Part shown: in pieces, positions 3,320 to 30,438 of the stretch
Layout: every line of letters starts with the position of its first letter
Position numbering within the stretch: the stretch's first letter is position 1
DNA from: Sphingobacteriales bacterium
GTDB taxonomy: Bacteria; Bacteroidota; Bacteroidia; Chitinophagales; UBA2359
Assembly: GCA_016700115.1 (NCBI GenBank)
Contig: CP064999.1
Coordinates: 1,346,865 to 1,410,864, forward strand
Length of the DNA stretch: 64,000 nucleotides
Direction: 5' to 3'
Translations under genes and position numbers: made by a program
Notes under the pieces: generated by a model
Seen by the model: the letters and a program-made list of their open reading frames with translations, nothing else
Told to the model about the DNA's origin: nothing
Databases searched by the model: none

Positions 3320-3385
3320 TTTAGTGAAATTAATTTTAAAGCCGGAGCTAAAATAACTCCGGCTATAAATGTTATACAATACTAA

Positions 3386-3928: not shown

Positions 3929-6061
3929 CTACCGCACCACCGCCACCTTCCCCCGCGCCAACACTGCACCGCCGCCATATCCGCCCTTGTCAGTGCCCCC
4001 GTTATTGCCATTGTCGCCGTTATTGCCGTTGTCAGTGTCCCCACTGACGACACCATCCGCACCACTCACAACATAAAAATACACCCCCACCGGCAAATGA
4101 GCAACCGAAAGGCTATGACTTGTCTGTCCTGCCGGAATGGTTGTGTGTAAAACTTGTTGACCGGTTGGGGAGAAGAGAGATATCTCTAAGACCCCTAAAT
4201 CCCCTGAAGGGAACTTTGACCCTTCGGGTAGGGCGAAGGTTATGGTGTTTGTGGCGGGGTTGGGATATACTACCACCCCTTGCCCCTCCGAAGGAGGGGA
4301 ATTTTCAGGGATGCCCACCGGTTTTGCTATGGCAATGGTTTCGGTATAAACCGAAGTGTCCTGACACACGACAACTGTTAAGGTAACGGTAAAGTTGCCG
4401 TTGTCGGGGTAGGTGTGAACTGGGTGTTCTTCGGAAACCGGCGGGCTGCCGTCTCCGAAATCCCAGATGCAGTAGCCTCCTTGGGAGAAGTAAGTGTTTT
4501 GGCTCAGATTGGTGAACAACACGGTGTAATTTAATATTTCGTGACCGAAAGCCGCCTGCGGATTTGGCTCGAAATCTATGCACGCGGCACGGGTGAGAGT
4601 TGAAGTATCGTTGCAAACAACGGCTTGGAGGGTAACGGGGAACAGCCCGGCGGACTGATAAGTATGAGTGGGCAGGCTGCCGCTGCAAGGTTCGTAGCCC
4701 TGCCCGCAAAGCAGGGGCGGGCTGCCGTCGCCCCAATCCAAGATATAATGCCCCCCGTCTATACTGTCTGGATAGACATACTGGCTTTGATTGGCAAAGG
4801 CTATGACATGGGGCATGGACGGGTATGGCAGCGCCAAAAAATCAGCCTTTGGCTCTGTTAGCAAACCCATGCAGTTTAAGCGTACCAACCATGCATCTGC
4901 TCTGCCGGGGGGTAAATCGCTCTCGGTTCTGCCACATAAGACATAGCCACTTTTGCCGCTGTAATCGTGGTTTTGGACGATGAGGTCGTAAAAATAGTTG
5001 TTTTTATTGCCGCCATATACCCGCCGCCAGAGTGTATTTCCGTCTTCGTCTAATTTTGTAATCTCTCCTTGTGCCTTTTGGTTATTCGGATTCATACTCC
5101 AACCTCCAATTACAATGCTTTGGTCTGTTATTTCTACTAGTCCAATAGGCTCTCCTTTATGAAAATTAACTTGATTATGCCACTGTGTCGTAAATTGTGG
5201 TGTAAGTTTAAATATTTCACCAAAAGCCTGTGAGTTACTTGATTGTTTTCCCGAAAAGACTAATCCTCCATCTTGAGTAGTGATTATACTACCTGCCACA
5301 TCACGAGAAAGCAATGAAGAGATGTTGAGGTTATACACCTGATGCCACTGCCAGTTACCAAGCGAATCTATTTTTATGAGGGCAATATCACCAGTACCAC
5401 TGACATTATAATTTACAGTAGCCAGTAAGTAAGCACCTCCATCGAGGGTTGTTGCTATATCTTGTATCCAGTTTAAGGTGTATTGAGTGTTGAAGTAGGT
5501 ATAGATGGTGTCAATTAGAGGCATGCCTGTTGCTAAACTAATTTTATTAAAATATAAGTTAAAGCCGTCTGAATCTAGCTTTTCAATCCAGCCACCTACT
5601 AATATCAAACTATCGTAAGTTACTGATGCACAATAGGTTTGATTCTGTTGTAATTGCCATTCCTCATTCGAGATGCTATTACTAATCTCCAAATTTTCAT
5701 TTAACAGGAAAAACAAACTAAATCCGGTTTCGGTATTTAGATTTTTTGCAGCATTTACCAAAAAGTAATTGTTGTTGTTGTTATAGGCTATTAAATCCTG
5801 CACATTGCTTTCAAAAAAGGATCCTATATAGTCTGTTCTATTCCAGTTCGTTCCGTCAATATTAACATTAGCAGTGAAAGAAACTACTAATTCTGTAGAT
5901 AGGCTTCTGAATGAACCGCCTAAAACATAAACAGAGTCTCTTTGTAATATTTTTTTAGCTTGTTGCACATCTACCCATGAATAATTTTGCATAAAATAGG
6001 GCTGTGAATTTGCTATGAAAACATTCAATAAGCATAAAACAAGAAAAATTAAAATTTGCAT
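3929..6061 (-). CDS. T9SS C-terminal-domain cargo protein A2 (paralog of 1178..3319)
   Basis: Signal peptide MQILIFLVLCLLNVFIANSQ. The C-terminal half is almost identical to A1, including the PKD-like modules and the G/N-rich CTD insert. The N-terminal half is diverged. Confidence 0.8.
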   Translation of the reverse strand: MQILIFLVLCLLNVFIANSQPYFMQNYSWVDVQQAKKILQRDSVYVLGGSFRSLSTELVVSFTANVNIDGTNWNRTDYIGSFFESNVQDLIAYNNNNNYFLVNAAKNLNTETGFSLFFLLNENLEISNSISNEEWQLQQNQTYCASVTYDSLILVGGWIEKLDSDGFNLYFNKISLATGMPLIDTIYTYFNTQYTLNWIQDIATTLDGGAYLLATVNYNVSGTGDIALIKIDSLGNWQWHQVYNLNISSLLSRDVAGSIITTQDGGLVFSGKQSSNSQAFGEIFKLTPQFTTQWHNQVNFHKGEPIGLVEITDQSIVIGGWSMNPNNQKAQGEITKLDEDGNTLWRRVYGGNKNNYFYDLIVQNHDYSGKSGYVLCGRTESDLPPGRADAWLVRLNCMGLLTEPKADFLALPYPSMPHVIAFANQSQYVYPDSIDGGHYILDWGDGSPPLLCGQGYEPCSGSLPTHTYQSAGLFPVTLQAVVCNDTSTLTRAACIDFEPNPQAAFGHEILNYTVLFTNLSQNTYFSQGGYCIWDFGDGSPPVSEEHPVHTYPDNGNFTVTLTVVVCQDTSVYTETIAIAKPVGIPENSPPSEGQGVVVYPNPATNTITFALPEGSKFPSGDLGVLEISLFSPTGQQVLHTTIPAGQTSHSLSVAHLPVGVYFYVVSGADGVVSGDTDNGNNGDNGNNGGTDKGGYGGGAVLARGKVAVVR

Positions 6062-6116: not shown

Positions 6117-9100
6117 TTATTTAATGACTATAAACTTGTTATTAACAACCGGTTTTCCATTAATACTAACCGTATAAAAATACAAGCCTGAGGTGTATTT
6201 ATGAATATCCAACAGATAATTACCACTATGAGTAAATACAGTAGTTTCCAAAATCTGCCCTAAAGGACTATAAAAAGAAAATATTGCCTCTTCTCCTGTT
6301 TGCAATTCATAACTAATGGTTGCAGTATAGTTTGATGGGTTGGGATAAAGTGGCGATATTTTGCTATTTACACTTTTAAAGGAACTATACCAGTTATCGC
6401 CCCCGCTTGCCAAGGCAGGAAGCACCACCGGAAAATCTGTACCTCGAGCAGCATATAAAATTGCTTGTGCCTTATAGCTTGTCTTTGTCCCGCTTTCGGC
6501 TATGTCTAAAAGTAGGTCTTCTTCTGCCTGAGAGATTTCAAAAATAGTTCTGTTATCGGCACGCAGGTCTAAAAGCAGTTGGTTTAGCTCAGTAAATCGG
6601 ATGTCTTCCTCTTTATCAGCACTAATCTGGTCAAGCAGGTTCTGAGCTATGACAAGGCTATCAACGCCTATATAATAAGGGATAAGGCGGCGTTGGGCTA
6701 TAAGACTTGTATTATGCCGGCGCAACAAATCTATGGCTTCGGTATAGCTGCTATCTGCCAATAGGCGCAAAATTTCTTGCGCAAGGTCGCGGTCGTCCAT
6801 AATTTCCAATCCTACATATTCGCTTACATCTTCAAAGGGAGTATATCCTTGGTTTGAACAATAAGGATTTAAGTCAATGGGGTTACAATCAAACGCTGAA
6901 AAACCACCTAAAGAGGAGAGGTCTGTTACTGAGAGCGTAGTAGCATCTACATCGTAATATATGAGGGTTTCTACACCAAACCCACCGAAAAGTTCGGGAC
7001 CAAGTCTTACATCCGAAACGCCCATGCCTGCGGCAGCCATAAAGGTGTTGGCGGCTGGGATTTGGTCAAAATCATCACACAATCCTTGTTGTGGCAAGAT
7101 GCCATTGGAAGAGGAGAATGCCCGATGATCTAATCCGTGCAGGAGGTAATCTAAAAGGTGGTTGCACCATAGTTGTGCCTGTGAGTTGTCACCCTCTGTA
7201 ATGATAGCTTCCATGGTGTTGTTTACCAAATTACCGGCTATTAGTGTGCCAGTAACATCGCTTTGGTTGAGAATAATGCCAAAATGGGTGCGGTGCAAAA
7301 AGTTGTTTACACAATATACATTAGATCCTCGGAAGTAAAATCCGGCGGTAAGATCTGCAAAAGCGAGGATGCTGTTGCCGGTTTCGTTTACGATGTTGTC
7401 CGTTATTCTGCAAAACTCATTACCATCCACTTGTACTGAGAGTTGGCAGTCGGTAAACTCGTTGTCTGAAATAGTGCTGTACTGGGACATTAAGTCCTTA
7501 TAGTGTCTGGAAGAAATACCCACTACATCGTTTTCAAATTTGCTTCCGGAGACTACCAAACTGTTTATAAAATTAGCCCTTACTCCATACTTCTGTTTTT
7601 CGAAAAAACAATTGATGATGCCCACCCTGTCGCACCAATGGGCATAGATACCTGCTTCGGGTTGTGTGGTGATGGCATTAAAAGGGAACCAAAGCGTTGA
7701 GGATGGGTAGAGAAACTCATTATCCTGAAAAGTATAAGGCAACAAATTGTTCCAACTGACATTGATGCCTTGGAAACAACCGGTAAAGCTGGAGGAAATT
7801 ATGTTGAGCAAGCCACCTGATGTAGATTTGGCGGGAACATCTTCAAATAATGAAGGCAATACCAGCGAAGAAATGTTAAAATAAGGGTTATTGGGTGGCG
7901 AAATATCGGCCATTTCGGCATTGTTGAGCGGGGCTAAGTTCATATTGACAACACCTAATACGGCATTTTTCACGTGAGACTGTTCCATAGATAATTTACC
8001 CGCATTGTTAGAATTGGGTTGAATGTCCATGCCTGGTCCTTCTACCTGTATTCCTGTCCACATCACTTCACACACTCCGTCAATAATGGTATTCTTGAGA
8101 GCTAAAGTGGCACCGGGTTGTACTAAAATTCGTTTATCCGGGGCAAATAAGAGTTGCATACCGTCAATTGTCAGGTCTATTCCTTGCGGAATTACCAAGT
8201 CCACATTAAAGGAAATAACAGGCAAAGAGCCGGTAATACTGACAAAGGGGTGTGAACCGGGTTCCCATGTTTGAGAAGAGGAAGGTGCATAACTGATTCT
8301 ATCTTCACCATACTCGCTCAGGGTATATACTTCGGGATTACCGGTGTTTACGGTGAAGAAGTTGGTCATATCAAGGCAATCATAAGGAGGATCTATGGGG
8401 CCGCAGTCTATAATGGTTAGAACAACCTCCAATCCCTCGCTGTTTGGAAAAGTACAGTAAAGTTGATTGGTGGAAGCATCAACATTGGTAAGTTCCGCAG
8501 TAATAGTAACCTGTTGTCCGTCGGTAAAAGCTATACCCACTAATAGGTTGAGGTCAATCGTAATGCATGGATCGTCATAAGAAAGGGTAACTTCTGCTGT
8601 TCCTGTTTCGGTGAATAAGCCGCCCGGTATGACAGATATTCCGGGAATTGCGGACACATTGGTTTGAATTGTGGTATTGACGACACTCCCAATGTCGGAA
8701 TTTTCGAAGCAGAGGGTATATGGAATACTCACCGAAGTGCCTCGGCAAATTTCATCGGGATCGTCAGCAGCAATGTTCACTTTACCCTTACATTCTAAAT
8801 AGGCTTCGAGGTTGTCAATAACAAGGTATTGAGTCTGAATGTTTCCATCTACAAAATTACCAACAGAATTGTTTCCGGTAAGCAGTAAAGTTGTAATATC
8901 AAAACCGGTATTATTTGTCCATGTAAAAGTATAAAATGGCGTTTGGGTGAAATCTAGTGTACTGAGCGTTGGGTTGATTATAGAACTAAGTGGAGAACTT
9001 GTTACAATGGGATCTTGAAGTTCTATACCACAAGGTTCTGTGGTCATATTGAAATGATAAACAGGTGGCGTACAAATTGATGATGTCGGCGTTATACAAT

Positions 9101-10958
9101 TTATACTTTCATAAGGGAAAGCAGGGCATGGATAATCTGTAAGGGCAGTAATTAATAATGTTGGGGCAGCAGTAAGACCAGAAGCAGAGATGGTTTGCTG
9201 AAATGCAAATGCATTAAAACTGACCGTTACTGTGCACTGATCAGGTATAGGGTCAGAAAGTGGAATGCTTGCAGATTCTTTATGACAACCTGTACAGTCA
9301 ATCCAGCCTATACCTAAGACATTATTATCAGTGTTGGCAATTTTAACATCTGGGGTATTACCACTAAATAAATCAGAAAAAACAAAATTGTCAACACCAA
9401 GTCCAGGATAATAGTTTGAAGAGTTATCATCATTATCAGGAAAAGTTTCAAAGTCCTCAAAATCGCCAAAGCAAATAATATTGCAGTATGGATCGTAACA
9501 TTGAATTTCTACCGGACTATTATTAACCAACACAGTCACTTCTTCTATCTGACAGATTCCGTTGCAATTTTCAACTGTATAGCAAAACTTATAGATGCCG
9601 GGTTCGAATGCTTCAATTTCTATAGAGATCGGAAAGTTTGAAACATCAATGTCAAGGCTGCCAATATACATACAATCAAAGTCAAAGCTAAAAGGAGCGC
9701 CTACAGGTACGACATCGTTGGCAAGTAAGCTGGATATAGGTATAACAAGAGGATTGTTGGCATCTTCGCCTTCTAAATAGATTTGGTAGGTATCAGGGTT
9801 GGTGAAAACCTCACAGGGTTGATCGCAGTTTTCTACACCAGGTAGGTCTATAATATGGTAGCCCAATGCACAAAGGATGTGGAGTTCTGCATCGGTAAGT
9901 GTTCTTCTTATTTCTCCAGCACTGATTGCAGGGTGCATAACATAGTTCATTGTGCCGGTTATACCAATTTCATCTGCACAAGAATTATCCAAGTGAGACA
10001 ACTTATTAAGGAAAATATTTTCGCCTGAACCTCCCGAAAAATTGGAATAATTAGCCACATTCACTGGCGCTAAAATAACCTGATCGTCATTGCGAAAGGC
10101 AAGTTCTAATGGACACCCATAAGCAAAATCATTGGGCATATAGTCAAAGTCAATATCATTAAACTCATAAGCGTTGCAACATTCGGTTATTGGTGCATGG
10201 TAGATAAGTCGAGAATCCTCGACTACGGAATAAAGAAATCTGTCCCATTGCGAGTAAAATCCATTCATGGCTGCACCGGTTGTACTAATACGCGAACCAA
10301 AGCCCAAAATATGTAAGGCTTCGTGCAGGGCAACTGAATACAAATCGTAATTGTTGGGATTAATACCTAAATTAGGGTCTCCCGTATCATCCTCTGGATA
10401 TGTATGCCATTGCCATTGGTCGGGTTCATGTATCTGCATCAATCCCAAATACCCTTCAGGATATTCATCCACAAAAATATTGTTGAGTCGTTCTATTATC
10501 CTGCTGTCAGCAATTCCACATTCTGCTTCCCATACTGGAGATCCTGTACCCAATATACCATTATTTAAAGGTGTTTTTTCTATCAACAGATTTATAGATT
10601 CCCCTGAAGGGTTGTCTATCGCTGCCGACAAATCAAAAAATACCCGACAGATAGTTGCTTCCTCGTTAGGTGTCCAAGTGCCTATAAAGACTAGGTTAAA
10701 ATAACTATCTATGCACGTTAGTTTGTACGCACCCGAACCATCTCCCGGATATGGGAAACCATATTCAGTATATTCATTACCGAACCGGTCGTAAAATCGG
10801 GCTACTTGTCCATTTTCTAAAGGCGGCTTTACAATCACCCCGCAAAATTCAATCGGTGTTTGCCCCATTAACACATTACCCCCCCCCCCATATATATAGG
10901 GAAAGCAAAACAAACAAGACCATAGTTTTGCAAAGAAAGCTGTTCTGAAATTGAACAT
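6117..10958 (-). CDS. giant (1613 aa) T9SS cargo protein with zincin-like HEALHILGFG motif and beta-helix-like region; G11 tract at residues 24-27
   Basis: Long uninterrupted ORF. It contains an HExxH motif and a WTGIQVEGPG block shared with 24585..28067 and 62077... The T9SS CTD is ...YTSGLYFYTVSINGKPVVNNKFIVIK. A poly-G(11) tract encodes GGGG right after the signal-like N-terminus. Confidence 0.8.
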   Translation of the reverse strand: MFNFRTAFFAKLWSCLFCFPYIYGGGGNVLMGQTPIEFCGVIVKPPLENGQVARFYDRFGNEYTEYGFPYPGDGSGAYKLTCIDSYFNLVFIGTWTPNEEATICRVFFDLSAAIDNPSGESINLLIEKTPLNNGILGTGSPVWEAECGIADSRIIERLNNIFVDEYPEGYLGLMQIHEPDQWQWHTYPEDDTGDPNLGINPNNYDLYSVALHEALHILGFGSRISTTGAAMNGFYSQWDRFLYSVVEDSRLIYHAPITECCNAYEFNDIDFDYMPNDFAYGCPLELAFRNDDQVILAPVNVANYSNFSGGSGENIFLNKLSHLDNSCADEIGITGTMNYVMHPAISAGEIRRTLTDAELHILCALGYHIIDLPGVENCDQPCEVFTNPDTYQIYLEGEDANNPLVIPISSLLANDVVPVGAPFSFDFDCMYIGSLDIDVSNFPISIEIEAFEPGIYKFCYTVENCNGICQIEEVTVLVNNSPVEIQCYDPYCNIICFGDFEDFETFPDNDDNSSNYYPGLGVDNFVFSDLFSGNTPDVKIANTDNNVLGIGWIDCTGCHKESASIPLSDPIPDQCTVTVSFNAFAFQQTISASGLTAAPTLLITALTDYPCPAFPYESINCITPTSSICTPPVYHFNMTTEPCGIELQDPIVTSSPLSSIINPTLSTLDFTQTPFYTFTWTNNTGFDITTLLLTGNNSVGNFVDGNIQTQYLVIDNLEAYLECKGKVNIAADDPDEICRGTSVSIPYTLCFENSDIGSVVNTTIQTNVSAIPGISVIPGGLFTETGTAEVTLSYDDPCITIDLNLLVGIAFTDGQQVTITAELTNVDASTNQLYCTFPNSEGLEVVLTIIDCGPIDPPYDCLDMTNFFTVNTGNPEVYTLSEYGEDRISYAPSSSQTWEPGSHPFVSITGSLPVISFNVDLVIPQGIDLTIDGMQLLFAPDKRILVQPGATLALKNTIIDGVCEVMWTGIQVEGPGMDIQPNSNNAGKLSMEQSHVKNAVLGVVNMNLAPLNNAEMADISPPNNPYFNISSLVLPSLFEDVPAKSTSGGLLNIISSSFTGCFQGINVSWNNLLPYTFQDNEFLYPSSTLWFPFNAITTQPEAGIYAHWCDRVGIINCFFEKQKYGVRANFINSLVVSGSKFENDVVGISSRHYKDLMSQYSTISDNEFTDCQLSVQVDGNEFCRITDNIVNETGNSILAFADLTAGFYFRGSNVYCVNNFLHRTHFGIILNQSDVTGTLIAGNLVNNTMEAIITEGDNSQAQLWCNHLLDYLLHGLDHRAFSSSNGILPQQGLCDDFDQIPAANTFMAAAGMGVSDVRLGPELFGGFGVETLIYYDVDATTLSVTDLSSLGGFSAFDCNPIDLNPYCSNQGYTPFEDVSEYVGLEIMDDRDLAQEILRLLADSSYTEAIDLLRRHNTSLIAQRRLIPYYIGVDSLVIAQNLLDQISADKEEDIRFTELNQLLLDLRADNRTIFEISQAEEDLLLDIAESGTKTSYKAQAILYAARGTDFPVVLPALASGGDNWYSSFKSVNSKISPLYPNPSNYTATISYELQTGEEAIFSFYSPLGQILETTVFTHSGNYLLDIHKYTSGLYFYTVSINGKPVVNNKFIVIK

Positions 10959-11235
10959 TTTTTTTCATTTTTTTTGAATTTTAAATTAAAAATCAGTTAG
11001 CTTTTAGATGATGAAAAAAGTGTCCCATAGTTGTTGTATCCCTTGTGTTGGCAATATACAAAACAGCTTTATTACTTGTAATGAAAAAAATAGAAATAAA
11101 ACCGGGTTTCTTGAAAATTTCAGCGATTTTCAGTTGTTTTTTAGCGGGTTTGGTGTGAAAATGTATTGATTTTCAGGGAGTTACATTATCTCCCTGTCTA
11201 TTGAGGAGAGAGGGTTACGAACAAAAAAAATTTCC

Positions 11236-20577: not shown

Positions 20578-22426
20578 CCTGACTTTGACAGTTAAATGAG
20601 ATAACCCGTTAATAATCAATGATAATAAGAAATAAGAAACCGCAATTGTAGTGGCAACTTTTTTTCTTAGGCTATTGTTTTTAAGACAATATGCTTACAT
20701 TTGCGGTATGTTTGTAAAAGCCACTAAATCTAAAAACCATACGTATATTCAGTTAGTGGAATCTTTTCGTGAAGGAAAGACTACCAAGCACAAGGTAATT
20801 GCCAACTTTGGTCGCCTTGACCAGTTGCGTGATTCAGGATTCCTACTATCAGTTGGGCAGAAATTGCTGTCATTGAATAACACGCCTTGCATTGGGGCAG
20901 AGAATTTGCAGGAAACTGCACGCTTCTGTTATGGTCATTTGGTCTATAAAAAAGTATGGGAGCAACTTGGCATCGGAGAAATTATCAAAAAATGTGCTAA
21001 GGGAACAAGGATAAAGTTCGATATAGAAGAGGTGATTTTCTATTGTGTGATTCATCGTCTGTTGAAAAGCAAATCAAAACATCAAGCATTTAAAGATCAG
21101 AAATTGTTTTATGGGCTAGGAAACATAATTGGGTTGCAAGAAATTTACCGAAGTTTAGATTTTTTGTGTGATAAAAAGCAGGCAATTGAGACACAACTGT
21201 TTTACCATAAAAAAGGCGTTTATGCTAAGCCCATCGAAGTTGCTTTTATGATGTAACGAATTATCACTTTGAGACAAACAGAGCAGATGCTTTACGCGAA
21301 TTTGGGTTTAGCAAAGCTGGAAAGTTTAATGAAGTACAAGTGGTGATGGGCTTATTTATAGATAGCACAGGCAGACCGATAGGCTACGATCTTTTTCCGG
21401 GTAATACTTTTGATGGTCAGACGATGGTAGATGCGCTGAAAATGTTAGAAAAGCAGTTTAATATAAGAAAAGTCATTGTAGTAGCCGACAAAGGTCTCAA
21501 CTCGAAAGAAAATTTTAATTTAATACGTCAAGCGGGCTATGACTACATTGTTAGTGCCCGCTTAAAATCGATGCCCCAAAAGTTGGTACAAAAGATTTTG
21601 GCAACTAATGATATGGAGACAAAGACTGTGTGCGAGGATACGGGTGAAGTAACATTTAGCTGGAAAGTGTTGGATTACGAAACAACCTACAGCGATGCCA
21701 ATAAAAAGAAACAAAATTGCAAGATAAACTCCTAATTACTTGGAGTGCCAAAAGGGCAGCCAAAGACGCAAGAGACAGGGAAAGACAAATACAAAAAGCA
21801 AAAGTCAAATTAGACAACGGAGCGGACTTGCAAAACAAAAAGGGGGCTAACCGATTCCTGAAAATGGCGGAGAGTACCAATACAAAAGCTGCTGAAATAG
21901 ACCAAGAACGAATAGATGAAGATGCAAAATGGGATGGTTACTACGGCATACAGTATAGTAAAACGGATATGACGAACGAAGAAGTCTTGGCAAACTACCA
22001 TCAATTATGGAAAATAGAAGAAAGTTTCCGGGTATTGAAGACCACCCTATCCACTCGACCAATTTTTCATTGGACACCCAAAAGGATAAAAGGACATTTC
22101 ATGACCTGTTTTTTAGCATTCATGCTCGAACGGACGGTGGAACTAACCCTAAAGTTTGCAAACATCAACTTAAGTCCATGCAGTATTAAAGAAGAACTCA
22201 ATCAAATGCAATTGTCTGAACTAACAATTGATGATAAAAAGTACTTGCTGAAAGGTGCTGACACAGCATTAACCAACAAAATCCTTTCGGCATTTCGTAT
22301 CCCTCCGTTCAAAGACTTAACTCCAGCGAACTAAATAACCCGTTTTGTAGTGGCAACTATGCCATTTTGAGAAAACTTAACTCGCTGATTATCAATGGTT
22401 TGTGAAATTTAACTGTCAAAGTCAGG
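20578..22426 (+). mobile_element. IS1634-family (IS4 superfamily) insertion sequence, transposase disrupted into three ORFs
   Basis: 20-bp terminal inverted repeats CCTGACTTTGACAGTTAAAT (20578..20597, inverted at 22407..22426). The N-terminus ...KSKNHTYIQLVESFREGKTTKHKVIANFGRLDQL is typical of IS1634 transposases. The ORFs 20651..21256, 21340..21735 and 21717..22334 are collinear but frame-broken. Confidence 0.75.
20651..22334 (+). pseudogene. IS1634-family transposase, interrupted by at least 2 frameshifts/stops
   Basis: Three consecutive ORFs totalling about 537 aa in different frames, which matches the ~540-600 aa of intact family members. Confidence 0.65.
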
Positions 22427-22774: not shown

Positions 22775-24508
22775 CTACCTAACCACCGCCACCTTCCCCC
22801 GCGCCAACACGCTCCCCAATTGCTCAACGGAATACAAATACACCCCCTCTTGCAAATGGGCTATTGAAATGGTTTTATGCGTTTCCCCAGCACCGAGAGT
22901 AGTTTGAAGCACGGTTTGACCGGTGAGGGAGAGGAGTTTTACCCCTAAATCCCCTGAAGGGGACTTTGACCCTTCGGGTAGGGCAAAGGTCAGCGTGTTT
23001 TGTGCGGGGTTGGGGTAAACTTGGATGAAGTTCTCACCCTTCAGGGGGTTGGGCGGCAGCCCCACCGCAATACCACTCCCCGAACGTGCATATACAAGCT
23101 GTTGGGTAACACTGGTATCGGAACAAACTATGGCGGTGAGGGTAACGAGGTAGTGGCCTTCTTCGGGATAGATGTGAGTGGGGTGGGTTGAGTTGCTGAC
23201 AGCCCCGTCGCCAAATTCCCAGATAAAATGCCCGCCGTCTATGCTGTCGGGATAAACGTATTGGCTTTGATTGAAGAAGGTGAACAATGCCGGCGGGGTG
23301 GTATCTTGCACGAATGTAAAATCTGCCTGCGGAAGACTGAGCAGCCCCATACAGTTGGTTTTGACAACCAACACATTGGCAGCACCGACCGGCTCGGTGC
23401 GGCCCACGCACAGAAAACCTCCATCGGGAGCAGGGTTAAAATCGTAAAAAAAATCGTTATTGGGTTCTGCGTCAAAATAGCGCACCCATAACGGTTCGCC
23501 ATCCGAACCTCTTACCTTCATAAGTAAGGCTTCTATTTTATCACTCGTTTGTCTTTTAGCACTTCCTATCATGATATAATTTTCTCCCAATTGATATATT
23601 TTGTCAAATACACTTTGTTGATAATCAGGGAAATACTGCCTTGTCCATAAGTTTTCTCCTGCTTTACTTATTTTTAAAAGCCTTGCATACTTGCCGGTTA
23701 CACCGGCAAGCATAATGCAAGAATCATTTGTAAATGTAAATGTACCGGCACCAGCTTTTTGACCTGCAAAATATGTGTTGAGATTAACGATATTCCCTTC
23801 AGGGTCAATACACATAAACAACATATCCGCATTCAAAGTATTGGGTATCAAATTTACACAACCTGTCGCATAACACCCACCGTCGGCAGTGGGAAGCAAG
23901 TCCAATATATAATTTCGATTGGAAAAGTTGTCGTAATATCTGCGCCAAACTATTTCACCATCTGTTATTTTGGTAATGACCAATCGGTAAGGTTCGGCTG
24001 CTGTTGTAAAGGCATTACCACCCAAATAATAGGTATTGGTTTCGGGGTAATATAACAAAGTGTAGCCATTTCCCTCATAAGGAGGATCGGGCAACTGAAA
24101 GTGATTTATTACCTCGCCGGCATGATTAACCTCTATAATGTATGGGTAGCTGTATATATCCCAAGGAAGCGTTTCATAAGGTTCGTTGTTCATCCACCCG
24201 CAAAAGGCATAACCAAATGGCGTAGTAATCAAATCTAACACCCCAAAAGTGCCAAAATCTTCGCCATAAGTCAACAGTGTTTGGTTTTCGGCATATTGAT
24301 CGGTAAAGAGTAAAAATGTTTTTTCTAATGATGTAGTCGTCAATGCTCCGCCACAACCTAAAACCAATAGCGTATCATTAATATAATATACTTTGTTTGA
24401 ACTCTGTCCATAACCCCAACCGATAGATTTTTCGAAATACTTTTCCTGTGCTGTCAGCCTAATACATCCATACAGACATAGACATATTATTATGATTAAT
24501 TGTTTCAT
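22775..24508 (-). CDS. T9SS C-terminal-domain cargo protein B2
   Basis: Probable start at MKQLIIIICLCLYGCIRLTAQ (the track ORF extends to 24562). Paralog of B1. Confidence 0.75.
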   Translation of the reverse strand: MKQLIIIICLCLYGCIRLTAQEKYFEKSIGWGYGQSSNKVYYINDTLLVLGCGGALTTTSLEKTFLLFTDQYAENQTLLTYGEDFGTFGVLDLITTPFGYAFCGWMNNEPYETLPWDIYSYPYIIEVNHAGEVINHFQLPDPPYEGNGYTLLYYPETNTYYLGGNAFTTAAEPYRLVITKITDGEIVWRRYYDNFSNRNYILDLLPTADGGCYATGCVNLIPNTLNADMLFMCIDPEGNIVNLNTYFAGQKAGAGTFTFTNDSCIMLAGVTGKYARLLKISKAGENLWTRQYFPDYQQSVFDKIYQLGENYIMIGSAKRQTSDKIEALLMKVRGSDGEPLWVRYFDAEPNNDFFYDFNPAPDGGFLCVGRTEPVGAANVLVVKTNCMGLLSLPQADFTFVQDTTPPALFTFFNQSQYVYPDSIDGGHFIWEFGDGAVSNSTHPTHIYPEEGHYLVTLTAIVCSDTSVTQQLVYARSGSGIAVGLPPNPLKGENFIQVYPNPAQNTLTFALPEGSKSPSGDLGVKLLSLTGQTVLQTTLGAGETHKTISIAHLQEGVYLYSVEQLGSVLARGKVAVVR

Positions 24509-24584
24509 TTTACAGTAGATTTTACCATCGTATTGGCGGCTAATATTAATATTAGCCGCCAATACGATGGAGGATTAACAAATA

Positions 24585-27500
24585 TTACTTGGATACTAAT
24601 ATTTTACCGGTAGAAAGCAGGTGTCCGTTTTGCACTAAGCGGTAGAAGTAGATGCCGTTTGTCCAGTCCTCAATACTGAGTTGCAGGTTGCCGGTTTGAG
24701 ATACTGCTTGGCGATAGACACGTTTGCCCGTTGTGTTGTATATTTCTAAATCTGCCAATGTTTTGTCTGGCAGACGATACTGTATCTGTAATTGTGTGGC
24801 GGCGGGATTAGGTGCAATGCTAATTAAACTGGAATTTGCCTCTCTGGTTTTAAACTGTATGGGCATTCCTTCCGTCAGGTCTTCGGGCAGCGGGGGCAGT
24901 TCTACCAATATGTCTTCGCCGTAAGCTAAATAGCGTAGTACTTTGGCACTCATTGCCGAGGTAGTCTGACTTTGAGCAATCTGACTTAACAGGGCATCTT
25001 CTTCAGGGCTGAATTGGGTGTAGCTTCGGTTGGTTTGTGCCAACGCTATCTGCAAAGACAATAACTCACGGAAATATTGATTGTCCAATCCCGTCTGTGG
25101 CAGAGTGTTACATATACTGTCTGCTTTGCTATACTGCCCTTGCTGCATAGACAGTGCAATTTTCATGCGTTTTGCAGTTTGAGTGTTAACACTTTCCAAC
25201 AGCGACATGGCTTCAGCAGTATCGGAGGTTTCGGCCATATAATGCCAGAATTTTTGTACCAACAAACGGTCTGCCTGTTTTTCGTCTGTCATTTCGGCTA
25301 TCTCTTCTTTGGGTATTTCCTGCCAGGTTTCACAATCTACGGTTTCACCGGCACTCCAACACGGCACCAAAGTTACCACCCCGCCTGCGGCATTGCTGAC
25401 ACTGGGAGTTAGTGGGGATATTGGCCGGTGTACATAATCGAAATTGTCGTTTATCACCGAGCGGATATCTACCAAAGTAGAGTTGATAAAGAGGTTGTCA
25501 GCGGGTTCATCAACTAATGGTGGCAAAAAATAACACTCCCCCTGATCGTCTAGTTCACCTGCAACCGGGGTAGTGCTATCATCAATCAGATATATGGCAA
25601 CATATTGTTCATAAAATTGGTTGCAATAGATATAAGTGCCATCGTTGTCGCCAATCATCCAGGCGCCGAGAAAATTGTCGGTAAAAATGTTTTCGTGGGC
25701 GATATTTGTTTCGTGGTCACTGTTCATAATGACCAAACCTGCCGTTACATGACTGATGTCGTCGTTATAGATATTGAAGCGTGACTGCACGGAGGCTATG
25801 CCATAGGAAGGCGAGCTGTATCCAAAGCCCGTGATGGTGTTTTGACTGGTTACAAGACGGTTGCCGAGTGTTTGGGCGGCAAAGACACAATTGGTAAACG
25901 TATTTGAATTTAAGAAAGTGGACAACAGGGTAAAAGTAAAGGTGCCGGCAGACGACATGCCGACCGCACAGTCGGAAAAATCATTGTTGTTAAAAACCCA
26001 ACTTGATATTTCAAAACCCCTTGCGCCAAACTTGGAAGTGGTAAAATTGTTTCCGTTCAAGACTAAGCGATGGTAGTCTTCGCCATAAATACCTGCTTCG
26101 GAATCGAAAAATGTTGTACCCGAGAGAACATTGAAGGGATATAAAACTAAAGGTGCTCCCCAAAACTTAACCGTATTTATGTAGGTAACGGCTGAGGGAA
26201 TGGGGGTGTTTGTGTTTACATACCAACTCAAATTAACACCCTGAAAACATTCGAATATATAACCCTCGTCTAACTGAATAACCCCTCCGGCAGTATTGAC
26301 AGCCGATGCGGAATTGGTGCTTGGTTTCAACAATAACGGCGTAAGCGTTGGGCAGTTTGTATCAAAAGGATCGTCGCATAACAGATAAGGATGGGTTTGT
26401 AGTTCATCGGCTATATTGGCAATATCTATCATGGGCACAAACATGCCGGCAATGCCGATCAGGGCACTTTGCAATTTCAGGTCATCACAAATATACCCTT
26501 CCAATTTACCGTAATTGGGCAACGCATCGGGCATAATCGCCCGTAAAACAGTCTTTCCGGGTCCCAAAACCCTGATGCCCTGCCACATGCTGCAAACAGG
26601 TTTCAACTCAACCCCTTTATTGAAGGTCAAAACAGCACCTTGCTCTACGATTATTCTTCCGCGAGGGCCGAAGTTTATATTTAATCCGGTACCGCTTGAG
26701 CCGGTAAATCCCATAACAATATGGATGCCTCTCGGAATAATGATATCGGTATTGACCAAAAATGGAACGGCAGTACCACCAAAAACTGTTTTCAATTCAT
26801 TGCTTGCATCTGTCCATGTGCCCGAAACGGTTACGGTATAGGCCATATTGTCATAAACGAGTGATAGCCCCGATGAATTCTGGTCTATGCGAAACGCGGT
26901 TTCATGCAAACAGCATTGAAAATCTTCTTGAGACAATATTTCCGTGATTTCAAGCGGCGGCTCCGGTGGTTCGGGGCAACAATCTGCTGGAGCATTTATT
27001 TTAATTATAACAAAATCATCAATACAATTACTGCTGGTTTCGTGTTCAAAAACGGCATAGTTGGGGTTGTTTGCCAATGAACGGATAAGCCTGTACCAGG
27101 TTGGTTGAACTGGGTAAACGGTTATTTCGGGTTGAGTTTCAGACATTGGTAGCCATGTAAAGCCGTAATTGGTCGAATATTCCCAAGTAAACTGCAAATC
27201 GGTCATAAGGTCGCAATGCCACCCTATAGCAATTCCGTTTTCAGCCTGTTCGCAGGAAGCATTTATTTCTGTATTTATATCCATAAAGTCATCTTCTATC
27301 AGGTGAACTTGGTCAATATAAGCAAAAATCAATTCGTGGCAGTCGTCTTGTTGCGGGTAAATGTATAGTGTGTTCCAAGTTTTTTCGGGAGTGAAGCATT
27401 GGAATACTTTTTGCCAGTTGGTGATGGTTATACTGGTTTCATGTAGCACGTTTTCAAAGTTCGCAGGGTCTGGCTGTAAGTAATGATCGGTGTTCCACGT

Positions 27501-28067
27501 AATTTCGTCCCAATTAGTAAGTTTGATGTACATATTATCCAATTCGTTGGTAAAGGGTCCTGAATATCCGGCATAAGTTCCTACACATTCTCCCGGTGGC
27601 ATTAAAAACTCAGATCCGTCACCAACAAAATCACCACCTCCCGGATCACAATACAACAATATTCTCCTTAAATAGCTCATTATATATGGCGTTCCGCTCT
27701 GTAAATCTACCTCTGCCATAATGCCTTCACCCCGTTGGCAACATTCTGCCGGTTCGTCCACTTCGTTATCGGTTGCCCACATTCTTATCTGTGTATCGTC
27801 CGTTGGAGTATCATTCACATCACTAAAATCGGGAGAACCATAAATATTTCTCCATCCCGGAAAGTTGTAACAAGTAGTAGGGGGGGTAGTTGCAAATTTC
27901 ATTTGCTCCCAAGACAAACAATCATAATCATTTATACTGGCTGCAACAATACATGAAGGCGGAATAACTAACTCCGGATTGCAAAGCAACATACAATTAG
28001 CTGCCGGAGTACAATAGTCATCCGGCCATGTGCCTTGGGCTAAGAGGTGGTTTACCCCCCCCCCCAT
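24585..28067 (-). CDS. giant (1160 aa as read) T9SS cargo protein; 5' end lies in a G11 tract, and an upstream out-of-frame signal peptide begins at 28130
   Basis: Long ORF with the beta-helix-like WQGIRVLGPG block and a canonical T9SS CTD (...WTNGIYFYRLVQNGHLLSTGKILVSK). The ATG sits inside ATGGGGGGGGGGG. The frame MKTNQNPFFRFVAIVCISLIFNGGGG starting at 28130 is +1 relative to the body. Confidence 0.75.
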   Translation of the reverse strand: MGGGVNHLLAQGTWPDDYCTPAANCMLLCNPELVIPPSCIVAASINDYDCLSWEQMKFATTPPTTCYNFPGWRNIYGSPDFSDVNDTPTDDTQIRMWATDNEVDEPAECCQRGEGIMAEVDLQSGTPYIMSYLRRILLYCDPGGGDFVGDGSEFLMPPGECVGTYAGYSGPFTNELDNMYIKLTNWDEITWNTDHYLQPDPANFENVLHETSITITNWQKVFQCFTPEKTWNTLYIYPQQDDCHELIFAYIDQVHLIEDDFMDINTEINASCEQAENGIAIGWHCDLMTDLQFTWEYSTNYGFTWLPMSETQPEITVYPVQPTWYRLIRSLANNPNYAVFEHETSSNCIDDFVIIKINAPADCCPEPPEPPLEITEILSQEDFQCCLHETAFRIDQNSSGLSLVYDNMAYTVTVSGTWTDASNELKTVFGGTAVPFLVNTDIIIPRGIHIVMGFTGSSGTGLNINFGPRGRIIVEQGAVLTFNKGVELKPVCSMWQGIRVLGPGKTVLRAIMPDALPNYGKLEGYICDDLKLQSALIGIAGMFVPMIDIANIADELQTHPYLLCDDPFDTNCPTLTPLLLKPSTNSASAVNTAGGVIQLDEGYIFECFQGVNLSWYVNTNTPIPSAVTYINTVKFWGAPLVLYPFNVLSGTTFFDSEAGIYGEDYHRLVLNGNNFTTSKFGARGFEISSWVFNNNDFSDCAVGMSSAGTFTFTLLSTFLNSNTFTNCVFAAQTLGNRLVTSQNTITGFGYSSPSYGIASVQSRFNIYNDDISHVTAGLVIMNSDHETNIAHENIFTDNFLGAWMIGDNDGTYIYCNQFYEQYVAIYLIDDSTTPVAGELDDQGECYFLPPLVDEPADNLFINSTLVDIRSVINDNFDYVHRPISPLTPSVSNAAGGVVTLVPCWSAGETVDCETWQEIPKEEIAEMTDEKQADRLLVQKFWHYMAETSDTAEAMSLLESVNTQTAKRMKIALSMQQGQYSKADSICNTLPQTGLDNQYFRELLSLQIALAQTNRSYTQFSPEEDALLSQIAQSQTTSAMSAKVLRYLAYGEDILVELPPLPEDLTEGMPIQFKTREANSSLISIAPNPAATQLQIQYRLPDKTLADLEIYNTTGKRVYRQAVSQTGNLQLSIEDWTNGIYFYRLVQNGHLLSTGKILVSK

Positions 28068-28209
28068 TAAAAATTAAACTAATGCAAACAATCGCTACAA
28101 AGCGGAAAAACGGGTTTTGGTTTGTTTTCATACAAAAATAAAAGTTTTGGTTTAAAATTCTGCATCATCTTAAGTTTATCTTTCTCTCAGGAAAGAGTTT
28201 ATCTGGTGC

Positions 28210-28355
28210 CTTACTTATATTATTCCTTTTCACAGAAAAAAATCAGCTTAAAATCGCACTTTTTTTCATTTTTTTTGAAAAAAGTTTTTTTTAACATCAA
28301 ATGCCTGTTTTTGTTAACGAAAAATAATTTACCTGGGTTGCCTGAAACCGGATCT
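28210..28355. repeat. third copy of the ~150-bp upstream element R (5' region of giant2)
   Basis: CTTACTTATATTATTCCTTTTCACAGAAAAAAATCAGCTTAAAATCGCACTTTTTTTCATTTTTTTTGAAAAAAG... matches the repeats flanking the IS. Confidence 0.7.
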
Positions 28356-28398: not shown

Positions 28399-30438
28399 TC
28401 AGACGGAATATGGGTTGGGGATTTTTATTTCATAAAAAGCACTTGCCCACTTTGGCGGTTGGGGAGCTTCTCTTTCTTGTACAGGCAACAGGGCAGATTC
28501 TCTTGTTTCGGTTACAGGTGGCGGAAGAGCATCCTGATCGAAACTTTTGAGTGAAACGGACTTATCACTCACCACCAATAAAAATCCGAGCATGGCATTT
28601 GGGTAATTATAGTGCTTGATAAAGGCATCCTGCACAAAGTTTATCCATTCTGTACGTCCGCCACCGGGCAGGGGTACGGAAGCATAAACCGTAGCTCCCG
28701 GAAATAACGTAACGGAGGTTTCCGACAAAGTATCGGTAAACACATCGAACAGTTGCCCCAGATAAACCAAAGAACAAAAAAACACCTTAAAAGACGAAGG
28801 ATTGGTCAGGGCAATTTTTAAGGCACCCGAAGGCAGTTTGGTCAGGCTTTCTTTGGGAGGCACCTGGGCGTAGTTAACGACACCCCTGTTTTTGGGATCG
28901 AAAACAACCGGCTGTTCGTTTCCCGAAGAGGTTTTGAAATAAACTTTGAGGGTGATGTCTTTAGGAGAAATAAACGCTGAGGGAGCGTCGTTTTGAAAAC
29001 CCTTGATATAATTCCATCGGGCAATATGCTTTAAATAGCTGAAAACCGCATGTGCCGATGCCTCGTTAAAACCTTCAACCTGCCGGGCAACGGGTAGTTT
29101 ATGGGCATTGTAAACCAACTCATATTGGTTGTTTTTAGCAATAATCCGGTAAGCATTCAGGATATTTCCGCGGTTGGTTGCAAAAACGTTGGCGTGATGC
29201 AGTCCTTGTTTATGCTTGTTATAGTATTGGGCAAGTTGTTGCACTCCCGAATTTTCACCGGACATGGTAAAAAGCAAAGGTACGGAAAACAGGTTTCTGA
29301 CAACGGCCGGGTAGGTTTTGGATTTATCCAATCCGGAGCTGCTTTCAAATTTAAGGTTGGAATGACTGGCAAATACTTCAGAAATTTGTGCCGATGCGAG
29401 CACTGTTTTACTTTCTGCATCGAGAATATCCACTTTTACCTTATCGAGGCCAAAGGTCAGGATTCCGTGAATAGCCCCAAGCCCTAATTGCCAAACAGTC
29501 TTGTAAGGGTGATAATTGACACTGCCCTGAACAGGTTCTCCTTCTACCAATCCGCCCAAAAAACGCTGATACAAAACAGCAGGAGACTGGTTCAACGGGG
29601 TTTGCTTGTTCTGTTCCACCGCATAAATTTGCGGAATTTGCCGTACAGAATTTCCGTCGGCATCCTGATACCAAACATCTGAAACAGACATCAGCCGGTT
29701 ATACAAATCCTGATAGGTGATATTGCCGGAAGATTGTTGCAGCACCTCGATCAGTTTGCCGGTAAAAACACTGCCTTCTTCAAAGGCAAAAGCCAACTGA
29801 TTGGCTTCACAAGCAGCAAAATGAATATGATCGCCCTGTGGCAACACCTTATCTAATGATGACGCAGCAAGTGCCTGTGCTTCGGTTATTTCATTGGCAA
29901 AGATATACTCATGCCATTTTCGCTGACCAAAACGTTGACCCGATTTCGATTGGTTCGGCAATTGCTTCACCATTGCGCGGTTTCCACGGGTAATATCACC
30001 CGAATGACAACAATCGGTAATCACTACTACATGCGGTTTTTGTCCCGAAATCTTCTTAATCAGATACCGCAACTCTTTATCGGCCAAACCATTCACGTTA
30101 AAAAAGTCATGGCAAACTAATGTTTCGATGGCCTCATCTGTTTCTGTTTGCTTAAAAGCAGCATGAGCTCCTTCCAGAGTACCATGTCCTGAAAAATAAA
30201 ACAGGGCGACATCGCCTTCCCCTGCCTGCCCTAAATGTTGTAAAAAGGCGTTGACAATTGCATTTTTTGTAGCCTGTGAATCTGTCAGCATTTTTACTTT
30301 CAGCGTTGCCCTTGTGCGGGCAGATGCTTCTTCAAGAAAAGTTTTTATATTGTTGGCATCATTCACACAACCGGACAGCGCAGAAGATGTTTGATACTGA
30401 TTGATGCCGACCAATAAGGCATAGATGGTTTTAGCCAT
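28399..30438 (-). CDS. caspase-family (peptidase C14) protein with ~430-aa C-terminal region of unknown function
   Basis: The N-terminus YALLVGINQYQ...LSGCVNDA, the catalytic His in FSGHGT and the Cys in ITDCCHSGD form a caspase/orthocaspase His-Cys dyad arrangement. Confidence 0.7.
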   Translation of the reverse strand: MAKTIYALLVGINQYQTSSALSGCVNDANNIKTFLEEASARTRATLKVKMLTDSQATKNAIVNAFLQHLGQAGEGDVALFYFSGHGTLEGAHAAFKQTETDEAIETLVCHDFFNVNGLADKELRYLIKKISGQKPHVVVITDCCHSGDITRGNRAMVKQLPNQSKSGQRFGQRKWHEYIFANEITEAQALAASSLDKVLPQGDHIHFAACEANQLAFAFEEGSVFTGKLIEVLQQSSGNITYQDLYNRLMSVSDVWYQDADGNSVRQIPQIYAVEQNKQTPLNQSPAVLYQRFLGGLVEGEPVQGSVNYHPYKTVWQLGLGAIHGILTFGLDKVKVDILDAESKTVLASAQISEVFASHSNLKFESSSGLDKSKTYPAVVRNLFSVPLLFTMSGENSGVQQLAQYYNKHKQGLHHANVFATNRGNILNAYRIIAKNNQYELVYNAHKLPVARQVEGFNEASAHAVFSYLKHIARWNYIKGFQNDAPSAFISPKDITLKVYFKTSSGNEQPVVFDPKNRGVVNYAQVPPKESLTKLPSGALKIALTNPSSFKVFFCSLVYLGQLFDVFTDTLSETSVTLFPGATVYASVPLPGGGRTEWINFVQDAFIKHYNYPNAMLGFLLVVSDKSVSLKSFDQDALPPPVTETRESALLPVQEREAPQPPKWASAFYEIKIPNPYSV

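Follow-up and report, generated by a model that had tools for sequence, protein, structure and literature searches.

Organization of giant T9SS gene 2

The DNA analysed here is a 64-kb stretch (the window) from an organism represented by a MAG. Giant T9SS gene 2 and its surroundings comprise the following features.

28205..28348, minus strand: conserved 5' block of gene 2, also present near the promoter of the in-frame paralogue P0005
28018..28131, minus strand: leader ORF of gene 2 as assembled (ATG 28131, the tract, an 11-codon out-of-frame tail and TGA 28020-28018)
28055..28065, minus strand: poly-G tract G11 of gene 2 (C11 on the plus strand), the proposed slippage site
codon 28037-28035, minus strand: predicted SPase I site of gene 2, between A and Q, before Q11 (Q-rule)
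24585..28067, minus strand: ORF for the body of giant T9SS cargo protein 2 (annotated as QQS30263.1, 1160 aa), with its start ATG in the tract
24600..24812, minus strand: T9SS type A C-terminal sorting domain (CTD) of protein 2, residues 1086-1156
22775..24562, minus strand: PKD + Por_Secre_tail partner gene downstream of gene 2 (ca. 577-595 aa; likely start ATG 24508)

The G11 tract at 28055-28065 is uninterrupted and lies within a reading frame near its 5' end, 64 nt past the leader ATG; the minus-strand reading across it is ATGAAAACAAACCAAAACCCGTTTTTCCGCTTTGTAGCGATTGTTTGCATTAGTTTAATTTTTAAT, G11 and TAAACCACCTC. The n and h regions of a predicted signal peptide, MKTNQNPFFRFVAIVCISLIFN, are encoded from ATG 28131, and the tract encodes the Gly3-4 hinge that joins the h-region to the c-region. 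As assembled, the frame of ATG 28131 translates as MKTNQNPFFRFVAIVCISLIFNGGGGKPPLSPRHMAG and reaches a stop codon 15 codons past the leader. The start codon of the body ORF is formed by AT and the first G of the tract, giving the N-terminus MGGGVNHLLAQGTW. Upstream, TAA 28076-28074 closes the body frame, and gene 2 therefore has no other in-frame start.

When the tract was rebuilt in silico with 6-16 G, ATG 28131 opened the long ORF only with 7, 10, 13 or 16 G, so that a change in repeat number would toggle gene 2 between a full-length and a truncated product. A G10 or G13 tract would give a fusion reading LIFNGGGVNHLLA and then QGTW, with a cleavage site at the junction that follows the Bacteroidota Q-rule for cleavage before Gln (PMC5837995, PMC10653852); the predicted mature N-terminal peptide, pyroGlu-blocked, is QGTWPDDYCTPAANC. 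The original prediction had described a G11 tract behind a leader with a stop codon soon after, an 1160-aa body starting from an ATG within the tract, and fusion in frame at 10 or 13 G, and all three descriptions were reproduced.

Identity of the cargo protein and of its 5' region

Protein 2 had been described as a T9SS cargo protein, and domain searches bore this out. Its CTD (residues ca. 1084-1158) matched Pfam PF18962 (Por_Secre_tail; E = 3e-10, above the cutoff) and TIGR04183 (E = 1.7e-11), with a match to the PDB CTD 8glj_D, and Pfam also indicated a NosD-like beta-helix. Beyond the CTD, the PDB and NCBIfam searches returned only a sub-threshold metalloprotease-like match, in giant gene 1. 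The window holds six other CTD-bearing genes, which imply that the organism is likely to have a working T9SS.

The hydrophobic core of the gene 2 leader has a KD10 of 3.20, comparable to the cores of the window's other T9SS cargo leaders, whereas the N-terminus of protein 2 as assembled (KD10 1.59) has no hydrophobic core. This agrees with the earlier view that the leader is a good Sec signal peptide and that the body is without one; a predicted Sec leader with its A-Q cleavage site is found on protein 2 only once the frame is restored.

The 5' block at 28205..28348 is 97.2% identical over 144 nt to positions 2822-2965 of locus L129. The leader/UTR segment 28066-28152 is 92% identical to that of the P0005 gene, and the protein bodies share 34% identity. 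The block is probably a promoter/5'UTR module, and the block, leader and tract together probably form a common expression cassette, judging by this pattern of identity. No RNA structure signal was found in the shared block (fold z = +2.05), the window gave no match to any Rfam family, and no σ70-type promoter or terminator of note was seen near the tract. The partner gene at 22775..24562 is probably co-transcribed with gene 2, and it may therefore suffer polarity while the giant gene is OFF. The pairing of a giant gene with a PKD/CTD gene recurs in L001, L002, L129 and L131, and the PKD/CTD partner genes are paralogous (37% identity).

Occurrence of long G runs

The window has a GC content of 42%, and just two of its G/C runs exceed 7 nt, both of them 11-mers. 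The G9 pattern occurred 6 times, compared with a mean of 0.61 in 100 dinucleotide-preserving shuffles, none of which reached 6. In 847 kb of unrelated loci there was a single G/C run of at least 8, and in 75 kb of related DNA long G/C runs were almost confined to the leader tract site. Among Gly codons GGG is the least used (18%), giving a probability of 0.006 for three in succession; despite this rarity, the G run is unbroken in every member of the subclade. The tract of gene 2 is not a chance feature.

A second poly-G tract in giant T9SS gene 1

The other 11-mer lies in a second giant gene, with the following features.

10876..10968, minus strand: gene 1 "frame A" leader, MKKNVQFQNSFLCKTMVLFVLLSLYIW followed by the tract and TAA, out of frame at G11
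10879..10889, minus strand: second poly-G tract G11, of gene 1, at the same leader position as in gene 2
6117..10958, minus strand: giant T9SS cargo gene 1 as assembled (1613 aa, ATG 10958, "frame B")
3929..6061, minus strand: PKD + CTD partner gene downstream of gene 1
1178-3379: tandem second copy of the PKD + CTD partner gene of gene 1

The gene 1 product combines an N-region resembling metalloproteases with a beta-helix and a CTD, and it is 26% identical to protein 2 over the C-terminal ca. 770 aa. The frame A leader joins the body at G7, G10, G13 or G16. Its KD10 is 2.88, whereas the in-frame leader of frame B reaches 1.47, and the frame A peptide is kept in L001 and L128. The frame B start (MFNFRTAFFAKLWSCLFCFPYIY) was considered as a second functional leader, which would make two of the three phases ON; this is unlikely in view of its weak core, and the lack of a frame B start in L128 also counts against it. 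T-rich codons probably account for the hydrophobicity of frame B as a side effect, and the annotated in-frame start of gene 1 is probably not the real leader. Both the same putative switch in gene 1 and the doubtful start of that gene had been overlooked in the original prediction. Both tracts in the window are G11, and both genes would be ON at G10.

Tract length variation among paralogues and relatives

The genome has a third paralogue, P0005, which is in frame and reads LIFNGGGVNSLFAQ, matching the predicted fusion exactly; its G10 tract was deduced from the protein sequence. The P0005 gene has a G13 tract in JGI 3300009873, where it is in frame with one extra Gly, and a G14 tract in SRR6032603, where it is out of frame. 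Otherwise, 0 of 1167 aa differ, and in 4901 nt the single tract gap is the sole difference. The three datasets with this gene may stem from related samples. In addition, poly-G of at least 10 is hard for Illumina sequencing, and the 10/13/14 series could partly be assembly noise.

At the homologous codon, nine further loci carry tracts of G8 to G14 in all three phases; for these loci and for the P0005 gene, the lengths come from assembly consensus, not from reads.

L001: G9
L002: G8
L003: G14
L004/5: G8
L006 and L127: G9 each, out of frame
L128: G9 followed by C, in frame
L131: G8
L132/3: G8

The genes in frame are P0005, L129, L128, P0014 and P0048, and those one G long are both window genes and L130. 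Roughly 4 out of some 12 genes have an in-phase tract, which is near the one third expected of an unselected switch; the same expectation has been stated for Neisseria autA (PMC5118866). The sign of the correction needed varies by locus (+1, -1 or 0), as expected of a drifting repeat. On the other hand, L006 and L127, which are 47 SNPs apart, share an identical out-of-frame G9, and short tracts are therefore not wildly unstable. In more distant members of the family, the leaders are of the ordinary kind and contain no Gly run. A metagenome search with the N-domain alignment returned one locus, L127, and the family is rare in the collection searched. Among the listed matches of the 18-mer ATTAGTTTAATTTTTAAT in genome contigs, hits were chance AT-rich sequences, and no G run came after any of them.

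The out-of-frame state of the window genes might instead reflect a miscounted homopolymer: the tract of gene 2 (and that of gene 1) would truly be G10 and the genes ON, with the frameshift a consensus or polishing error in a tract that could still be mutable. The single 5.97-Mb contig suggests a long-read assembly, which is prone to errors in long homopolymers, and both window tracts are exactly one G above an in-frame length. The extreme G14 (L003, compared with G8 in L002) also sits in an indel-rich assembly, with 32 gap positions against L002 and the gene split in two. However, P0005 is in frame in the same assembly as the window genes, and there was therefore no uniform over-call of G runs. 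Apart from the tracts, ca. 14.5 kb of giant ORFs are intact, and although the 64 kb contain 21 A/T runs of 8-9, no indel disrupts any non-transposase gene there; the only interrupted genes are transposase genes. Several of the homologous loci are Illumina contigs (SPAdes NODE, coverage 14.6 and 57; MEGAHIT k141), and these independent short-read assemblies, at 14-57x coverage, also show out-of-frame tracts. We therefore regard a miscount as rather unlikely.

Permanent inactivation of gene 2 by a homopolymer frameshift, leaving a decaying pseudogene, would likewise account for its out-of-frame state in the assembly. No other lesion was found in the 1160-codon ORF, and ORFs of more than 1100 codons are intact even in the OFF copies, including out-of-frame orthologues. 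Synonymous sites are saturated among the orthologues (pS 0.75-0.81; pN 0.18-0.24), with pN/pS of ca. 0.24-0.29, and the body ORF of gene 2 is under purifying selection. The tract is kept across paralogues and species and is invariant in alignments A2 and A3. Decay is thus extremely improbable, and these sequences indicate that the tract and the intact gene are maintained by selection in OFF alleles.

Proposed switch mechanism and possible recoding

The G run is probably a slipped-strand on/off switch in the leader of a giant T9SS protein family. The paralogue tracts, the 10/13/14 length series and the G8-G14 range in nine loci all support the original proposal of a contingency switch that would be OFF as assembled. 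The run would act as a hypermutable simple-sequence repeat (SSR) sited in the Gly hinge of a Sec signal peptide, and slipped-strand mispairing at replication would add or remove G residues. With an in-phase tract of 10 or 13 G, ATG 28131 of gene 2 would give leader-GGG(G)-VNHLLA joined to Q-body. Such a protein would pass the inner membrane by Sec, be cut before Gln, and be exported and anchored via its T9SS CTD. In a tract one G short, the leader ORF would end directly after the tract (GGG-TAA/TGA), and in a tract one G long, the state of gene 2 in the window, it would end ca. 12 codons later. Out of phase, the body would be made without a leader, and no surface protein would appear; this absence of export in the OFF state, a high slippage rate and reversibility are what we infer for the switch. 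The tract would lie in the cleaved-off part, and three or four Gly should therefore both be tolerated with the same mature protein. At least three paralogues in the genome would each have their own tract behind the common 5' cassette, and a population could therefore show varied protein combinations. Recoding the G run (GGTGGAGGC) should lock the gene ON.

It is also conceivable that the out-of-frame state is the normal one and that some full-length product arises, instead of or in addition to DNA switching, by RNA polymerase slippage on the G run or by -1 slippage of tRNA-Gly in the P site on G GGG GGG, stalled at the TAA/TGA adjoining a tract that is one G short. Transcriptional slippage on homopolymers, with selection keeping such frameshifts, is established, as outlined in PMC3711429 and its ref. 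15. The tract is out of frame in most of the sampled loci and is followed by TAA or TGA in all of them except L128, where it is followed by C. Each of the loci without ascertainment bias (L002, L006 and L127) falls one G short of an in-frame tract, and G9 is retained in two divergent strains. However, the offset varies among loci (-1, +1 and 0), and one programmed shift cannot serve all of them. Folding of 27985-28070 revealed no significant downstream RNA structure (z = -1.0; 34 of 200 shuffles were as stable), and slippage is best documented on A/T runs (PMC3711429). The excess of tracts one G short was weighed as evidence for programmed -1 recoding and was discarded: it is largely a matter of ascertainment, in that an MGG... 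gene call is possible in just one OFF phase per leader type, and all three phases are about equally filled. The unbiased sample for the one-short state consists of 3 loci. We therefore consider recoding as the normal mode of expression improbable. When the tract is one G short, the in-frame stop codon behind it could nonetheless promote slippage in the P site. Similarly improbable is a DNA switch combined with a two-layer rheostat for the family behind the common 5' cassette, in which an out-of-frame genomic state would prevail by design, slippage of RNA polymerase or the ribosome would yield a set fraction of product and the DNA length would tune its efficiency. For a slipped-strand switch, RNA-level slippage may leave the OFF state leaky.

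Comparison with known systems

In Campylobacter jejuni, poly-G tracts of G8-G13 in a low-GC genome act as intragenic translational ON/OFF switches, and many such loci generate combinatorial phenotypes. The tracts described here are similar to these in length, in their presumed intragenic translational action and in occurring at several loci per genome. They differ in that the C. jejuni tracts usually lie inside glycosyltransferase or surface-structure genes, with no particular placement at a signal-peptide hinge, and belong to Campylobacterota, which are not known to have a T9SS. Poly-G tracts in autotransporter and surface genes have also been described (PMC7168839, PMC7099621).

A positional parallel is Gardnerella nanH3, in which a homopolymer of 8-14 bases (there poly-C) lies just past the signal-peptide coding region of an exported protein, out-of-phase annotations are without a signal peptide, and the tract differs in length both among strains and within them (bioRxiv 10.1101/2020.09.16.300947). 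Unlike nanH3, a single gene for a Sec/cell-wall-anchored protein of a Gram-positive actinobacterium, the genes described here form a T9SS multigene family with a common 5' cassette. Switching of nanH3 was demonstrated by clone sequencing, whereas here we infer it.

In Neisseria, the CTCTT leader repeats of opa (as summarized in bioRxiv 10.1101/2020.09.16.300947) and the AAGC repeats within the leader-coding DNA of autA and autB (PMC5118866) lie in a cleaved leader, so that the frame changes and the mature protein remains the same, as proposed here. The opa genes also encode surface proteins as a multigene family. In these Neisseria systems about one third of copies should be in phase in the absence of selection. 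In contrast to these penta- and tetranucleotide repeats of host-restricted pathogens, which control outer-membrane beta-barrels or autotransporters, the present repeat is a homopolymer in T9SS cargo genes. Homopolymer frameshifts maintained by selection across lineages in intact genes are also found in Blochmannia and Buchnera, insect endosymbionts in which transcriptional slippage rescues them (Wernegreen 2010, as cited in PMC3711429). Those frameshifts lie in poly-A tracts of essential genes, in genomes with reduced repair, and their offset is fixed; in the family described here, the offset varies and in-frame alleles exist. The class of mechanism is thus well known from Neisseria opa and autA/autB, Gardnerella nanH3 and Campylobacter poly-G. 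A literature search, of incomplete coverage, returned no direct precedent for SSR switches in T9SS cargo or in Bacteroidota.

Implications

The gene calls of NCBI, JGI and Logan start at MGGG... or at an internal Met, and the genes therefore seem to be without signal peptides. There is also a risk that polishing pipelines "correct" a frameshift with biological meaning.

In Bacteroidota, invertible promoters are the usual explanation for phase variation, and contingency loci based on repeat slippage are mostly known from host-adapted pathogens. A homopolymer switch built into the cleaved leader of a giant T9SS protein family of uncultured Chitinophagales/Sphingobacteriales-like bacteria, which are apparently environmental, would suggest stochastic, combinatorial control of very costly surface proteins outside the host-pathogen setting. 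The surface proteins under such control would possibly be adhesins, proteases or targets of phages or predators.

Reading frames at the leader of gene 2

On the minus strand, gene 2, a giant T9SS cargo gene, begins with ATG AAA ACA ... ATT TTT AAT, followed by a run of 11 G (G11; C11 on the plus strand) and TAAACC. The elements of this region are as follows.

28131 (−): leader ATG; as assembled, its frame reads MKTNQNPFFRFVAIVCISLIFN-GGGG-KPPLSPRHMAG up to the stop codon TGA at 28020-28018
28055-28065 (−): G11 tract
24585-28067 (−): body ORF, 1160 aa, whose ATG is AT plus the first G of the tract; N-terminus MGGGVNHLLAQGTWPDDYC...
28076-28074 (−): TAA shutting the body frame on its upstream side

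When the region was rebuilt in silico with 6 to 16 G, the leader ATG opened the long ORF only with G7, G10, G13 or G16. The frames and this series therefore demonstrate that the original prediction described the sequence, tract, leader and frames exactly, including the in-frame lengths of 10 and 13 G. Apart from two 11-mers, no G/C run in the window (GC content 42%) is longer than 7. Shuffled sequence did not reproduce these 11-mers; the gene 2 tract is far from chance.

Before T9SS can export them, cargo proteins have to pass the inner membrane through the Sec pathway. The gene 2 ORF encodes a right-handed, NosD-like beta-helix together with a C-terminal sorting domain (CTD) of T9SS type A, for which Pfam PF18962 and TIGR04183 both exceeded the cutoff and a PDB CTD was also matched. 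The NCBI entry (QQS30263.1, on a 5.97-Mb contig of a 'MAG: Sphingobacteriales bacterium') starts at the in-tract ATG. This N-terminus lacks a hydrophobic core (highest Kyte-Doolittle mean over 10 residues, KD10, 1.59), whereas the fused leader reaches a KD10 of 3.20 with two positive charges in its n-region, consistent with the earlier claim of a good Sec leader upstream and none on the body. The fused leader ends ...VNHLLA/QGTW (slash, predicted cleavage site), compared with LTA/QE, ANS/QP and SYA/QP in three other CTD proteins of the window, and the predicted site fits the Bacteroidetes Q-rule (PMC5837995, PMC10653852). The gene directly upstream (28399-30438, −) codes for a protein of 679 aa that carries a caspase (Peptidase_C14) domain at its N-terminus.

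Further copies in the same genome

The second G11 (10879-10889, −) occupies the matching position within the leader of another giant T9SS gene, gene 1 (6117..10958, −), which shares no more than 26% identity with gene 2, across the C-terminal ~770 residues. Two ATGs precede it. The one at 10968 starts a canonical leader, MKKNVQFQNSFLCKTMVLFVLLSLYIW (KD10 2.88), which is out of frame with G11 and fused with G10 or G13; the one at 10958, the start of the 1613-aa in-frame annotated ORF, gives a poor leader (KD10 1.47). With its canonical leader out of frame and its in-frame start so poorly equipped, gene 1, intact in appearance, is probably also functionally OFF as assembled.

A third paralogue, P0005 (QQS30583.1), lies ~320 genes away and has the N-terminus MNKNQNPFFRLVAIVCISLIFNGGGVNSLFAQ..., an exact match to the fusion predicted for gene 2; its tract must therefore be G10, a length deduced from the protein. 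Gene 1 residues ~194-367 matched the NF038122 metalloprotease family below threshold, and the variable N-terminal head domains of P0002 (from L001) and P0006 (from L004) carry the zinc-metalloprotease motifs HEALHILG and HELGHTLGLHH. The gene 2 head is Cys-rich and of no recognisable family.

Tract length in other datasets and relatives

The P0005 gene was also found in two other datasets, and further homologous loci each have a tract at the homologous codon.

Leader tracts at homologous loci
L129 (P0005 gene, JGI 3300009873): G13; in frame, NGGGGV, one extra Gly
L130 (P0005 gene, Logan SRR6032603): G14; out of frame, gene called from MGGGGV
L001: G9; in frame at 10
L002: T+G8; in frame at 9; SPAdes, 14.6x
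L003: T+G14; 94% identical to L002, whose homology implies in-frame lengths of 9, 12 or 15
L004/L005: G8; in frame at 9
L006 and L127: G9; in frame at 10; two strains separated by 47 SNPs
L128: G9+C; in frame
L131: G8; in frame at 9; MEGAHIT, 97-kb contig
L132/L133: G8; in frame at 9

The P0005, L129 and L130 proteins are identical across 1167 residues, and the sole difference between L129 and L130 in 4901 nt is one gap in the tract. The Logan contig of the G14 allele begins just 19 nt upstream of the tract (L130 1-33), as would be expected if the de Bruijn graph had broken at a repeat of mixed length, although this is suggestive only. L003 comes from an indel-rich assembly, and an extra downstream indel leaves its ORF closed whatever the tract length. 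L002 and L003 also share an internal in-frame G8 (3358-3365, part of the GGGG in ...CDPGGGGDLIG), which is of equal length in both while their leader tracts are 8 and 14; it offers a useful built-in check on sequencing error and on how stable such tracts are.

Counted by gene, ~4 tracts are in frame and ~8 out of frame, both OFF phases being represented. An unselected repeat should be in phase in one third of copies (compare autA, PMC5118866), and the observed fraction comes near that value. An exhaustive family search yielded 67 representatives with E≤1e-30. The tract footprint is seen in one subclade, in frame as ...FNGGGVNALYAQ (P0014) and ...ICIWGGVNAPLYGQ (P0048) and as in-tract starts in P0030 and P0050; in distant members the leader is of the ordinary kind and lacks a Gly run.

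A miscounted tract in the window assembly would also account for the apparent OFF state, since the contig probably derives from long reads and the tracts of genes 1 and 2 each exceed the in-frame length by one G. We regard this as unlikely: the third tract of the same assembly is in frame, the interrupted genes in the window are transposases only, and independent short-read assemblies commonly show out-of-phase tracts.

Conservation of the tract and ORF

Orthologous N-domains showed a pN of 0.18-0.24 with saturated synonymous sites (pS 0.75-0.81), and out-of-phase copies still have intact ORFs of >1100 codons. Both observations contradict the reading of gene 2 as a pseudogene, which is hardly credible. 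GGG is the rarest Gly codon in the window (18%), so that three consecutive GGG would have P ~0.006; the G run is nevertheless uninterrupted in all subclade members. In the gene 2 group it is flanked by the invariant ATTAGTTTAATTTTTAAT, and in 75 kb of related DNA long G/C runs are essentially confined to the leader tract site. This pattern points to a tract kept by selection.

Proposed switch and shared 5' region

A slipped-strand contingency switch, as originally proposed, is the best explanation of the tract, and a likely one, in view of the sister tracts, the G10, G13 and G14 of the P0005 gene, the conserved run and the intact ORFs. The tract would encode a Gly hinge joining the h- and c-regions of the cleaved leader; because it lies in the part removed, 3 or 4 Gly should be equally acceptable and leave the mature protein unchanged. 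One G short, the leader ORF would stop immediately because TAA or TGA directly follows the tract; one G long, the window state, it would stop after ~12 codons. Out of phase, the body would be made without an export signal.

Slippage at the RNA or ribosome level as the true route of expression is very unlikely. The tract followed by a stop codon in the one-short phase, and the G9 common to two divergent strains, would suit it, but the sign of the offset varies from locus to locus, in-frame alleles are present, and no downstream structure was detected in the fold after the gene 2 tract. The procedure for recognizing OFF alleles, moreover, biases which phase is sampled. Such slippage may render the OFF state of the contingency switch leaky.

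A PKD+CTD partner gene lies close behind each giant gene and may suffer polarity when the giant gene is OFF. Downstream of gene 1 are tandem paralogous PKD+CTD genes (1178-3379 and 3929-6061, −) with a short CTD-only ORF between them (154 aa, 3386-3850, −). In related contigs every giant gene has a PKD/CTD partner, the partners being divergent paralogues (37% identity).

A 144-nt block upstream of gene 2 (28205-28348, −) is 97% identical to L129 2822-2965, upstream of the P0005 gene. The UTR and leader of the two genes are 92% identical, whereas the proteins are just 34% identical. The block is probably a shared promoter/5'UTR module held alike by recombination; no RNA structure signal was seen in it. 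This shared expression cassette is reminiscent of other phase-variable multigene families. A comparable upstream block is present in L002 and L003.

Comparison with known systems

Invertible promoters predominate in the literature on phase variation in Bacteroidota. The gene 2 tract has all the defining features of a contingency gene that can be assessed in silico, and high-frequency, reversible switching is its predicted behaviour. Its architecture is that of Gardnerella nanH3, in which C8-14 lies directly behind the signal-peptide region and annotations lose the leader (bioRxiv 10.1101/2020.09.16.300947). It also matches Neisseria autA/autB (PMC5118866) and opa (bioRxiv 10.1101/2020.09.16.300947), with repeats within leader-coding DNA, and the Campylobacter poly-G contingency genes. 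The type of switch is thus already known; within an incomplete coverage of the literature, repeat switches were found described neither for T9SS cargo nor for Bacteroidota. For annotation, every public gene call for OFF alleles begins MGG... or at an internal Met.

Other features of the window

A 177-aa ORF without a Pfam match occurs in three copies (542-1075, 12155-12688 and 13368-13901, +), two of them within a ~1.2-kb tandem repeat with identical flanks around G6 runs at 11867 and 13068. A DDE_Tnp_1 transposase (20636-22331, +) is split into three overlapping ORFs (20636-21253, 21229-21732 and 21705-22331), with an A-rich stretch near 21700-21720 at the second junction; this reflects a programmed frameshift or else decay of the IS. 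A Mutator-family (IS256-like) transposase (51144-52328, +) is interrupted by one in-frame TGA at 51744-51746, and the two parts align with positions 15-197 and 217-372 of the profile.
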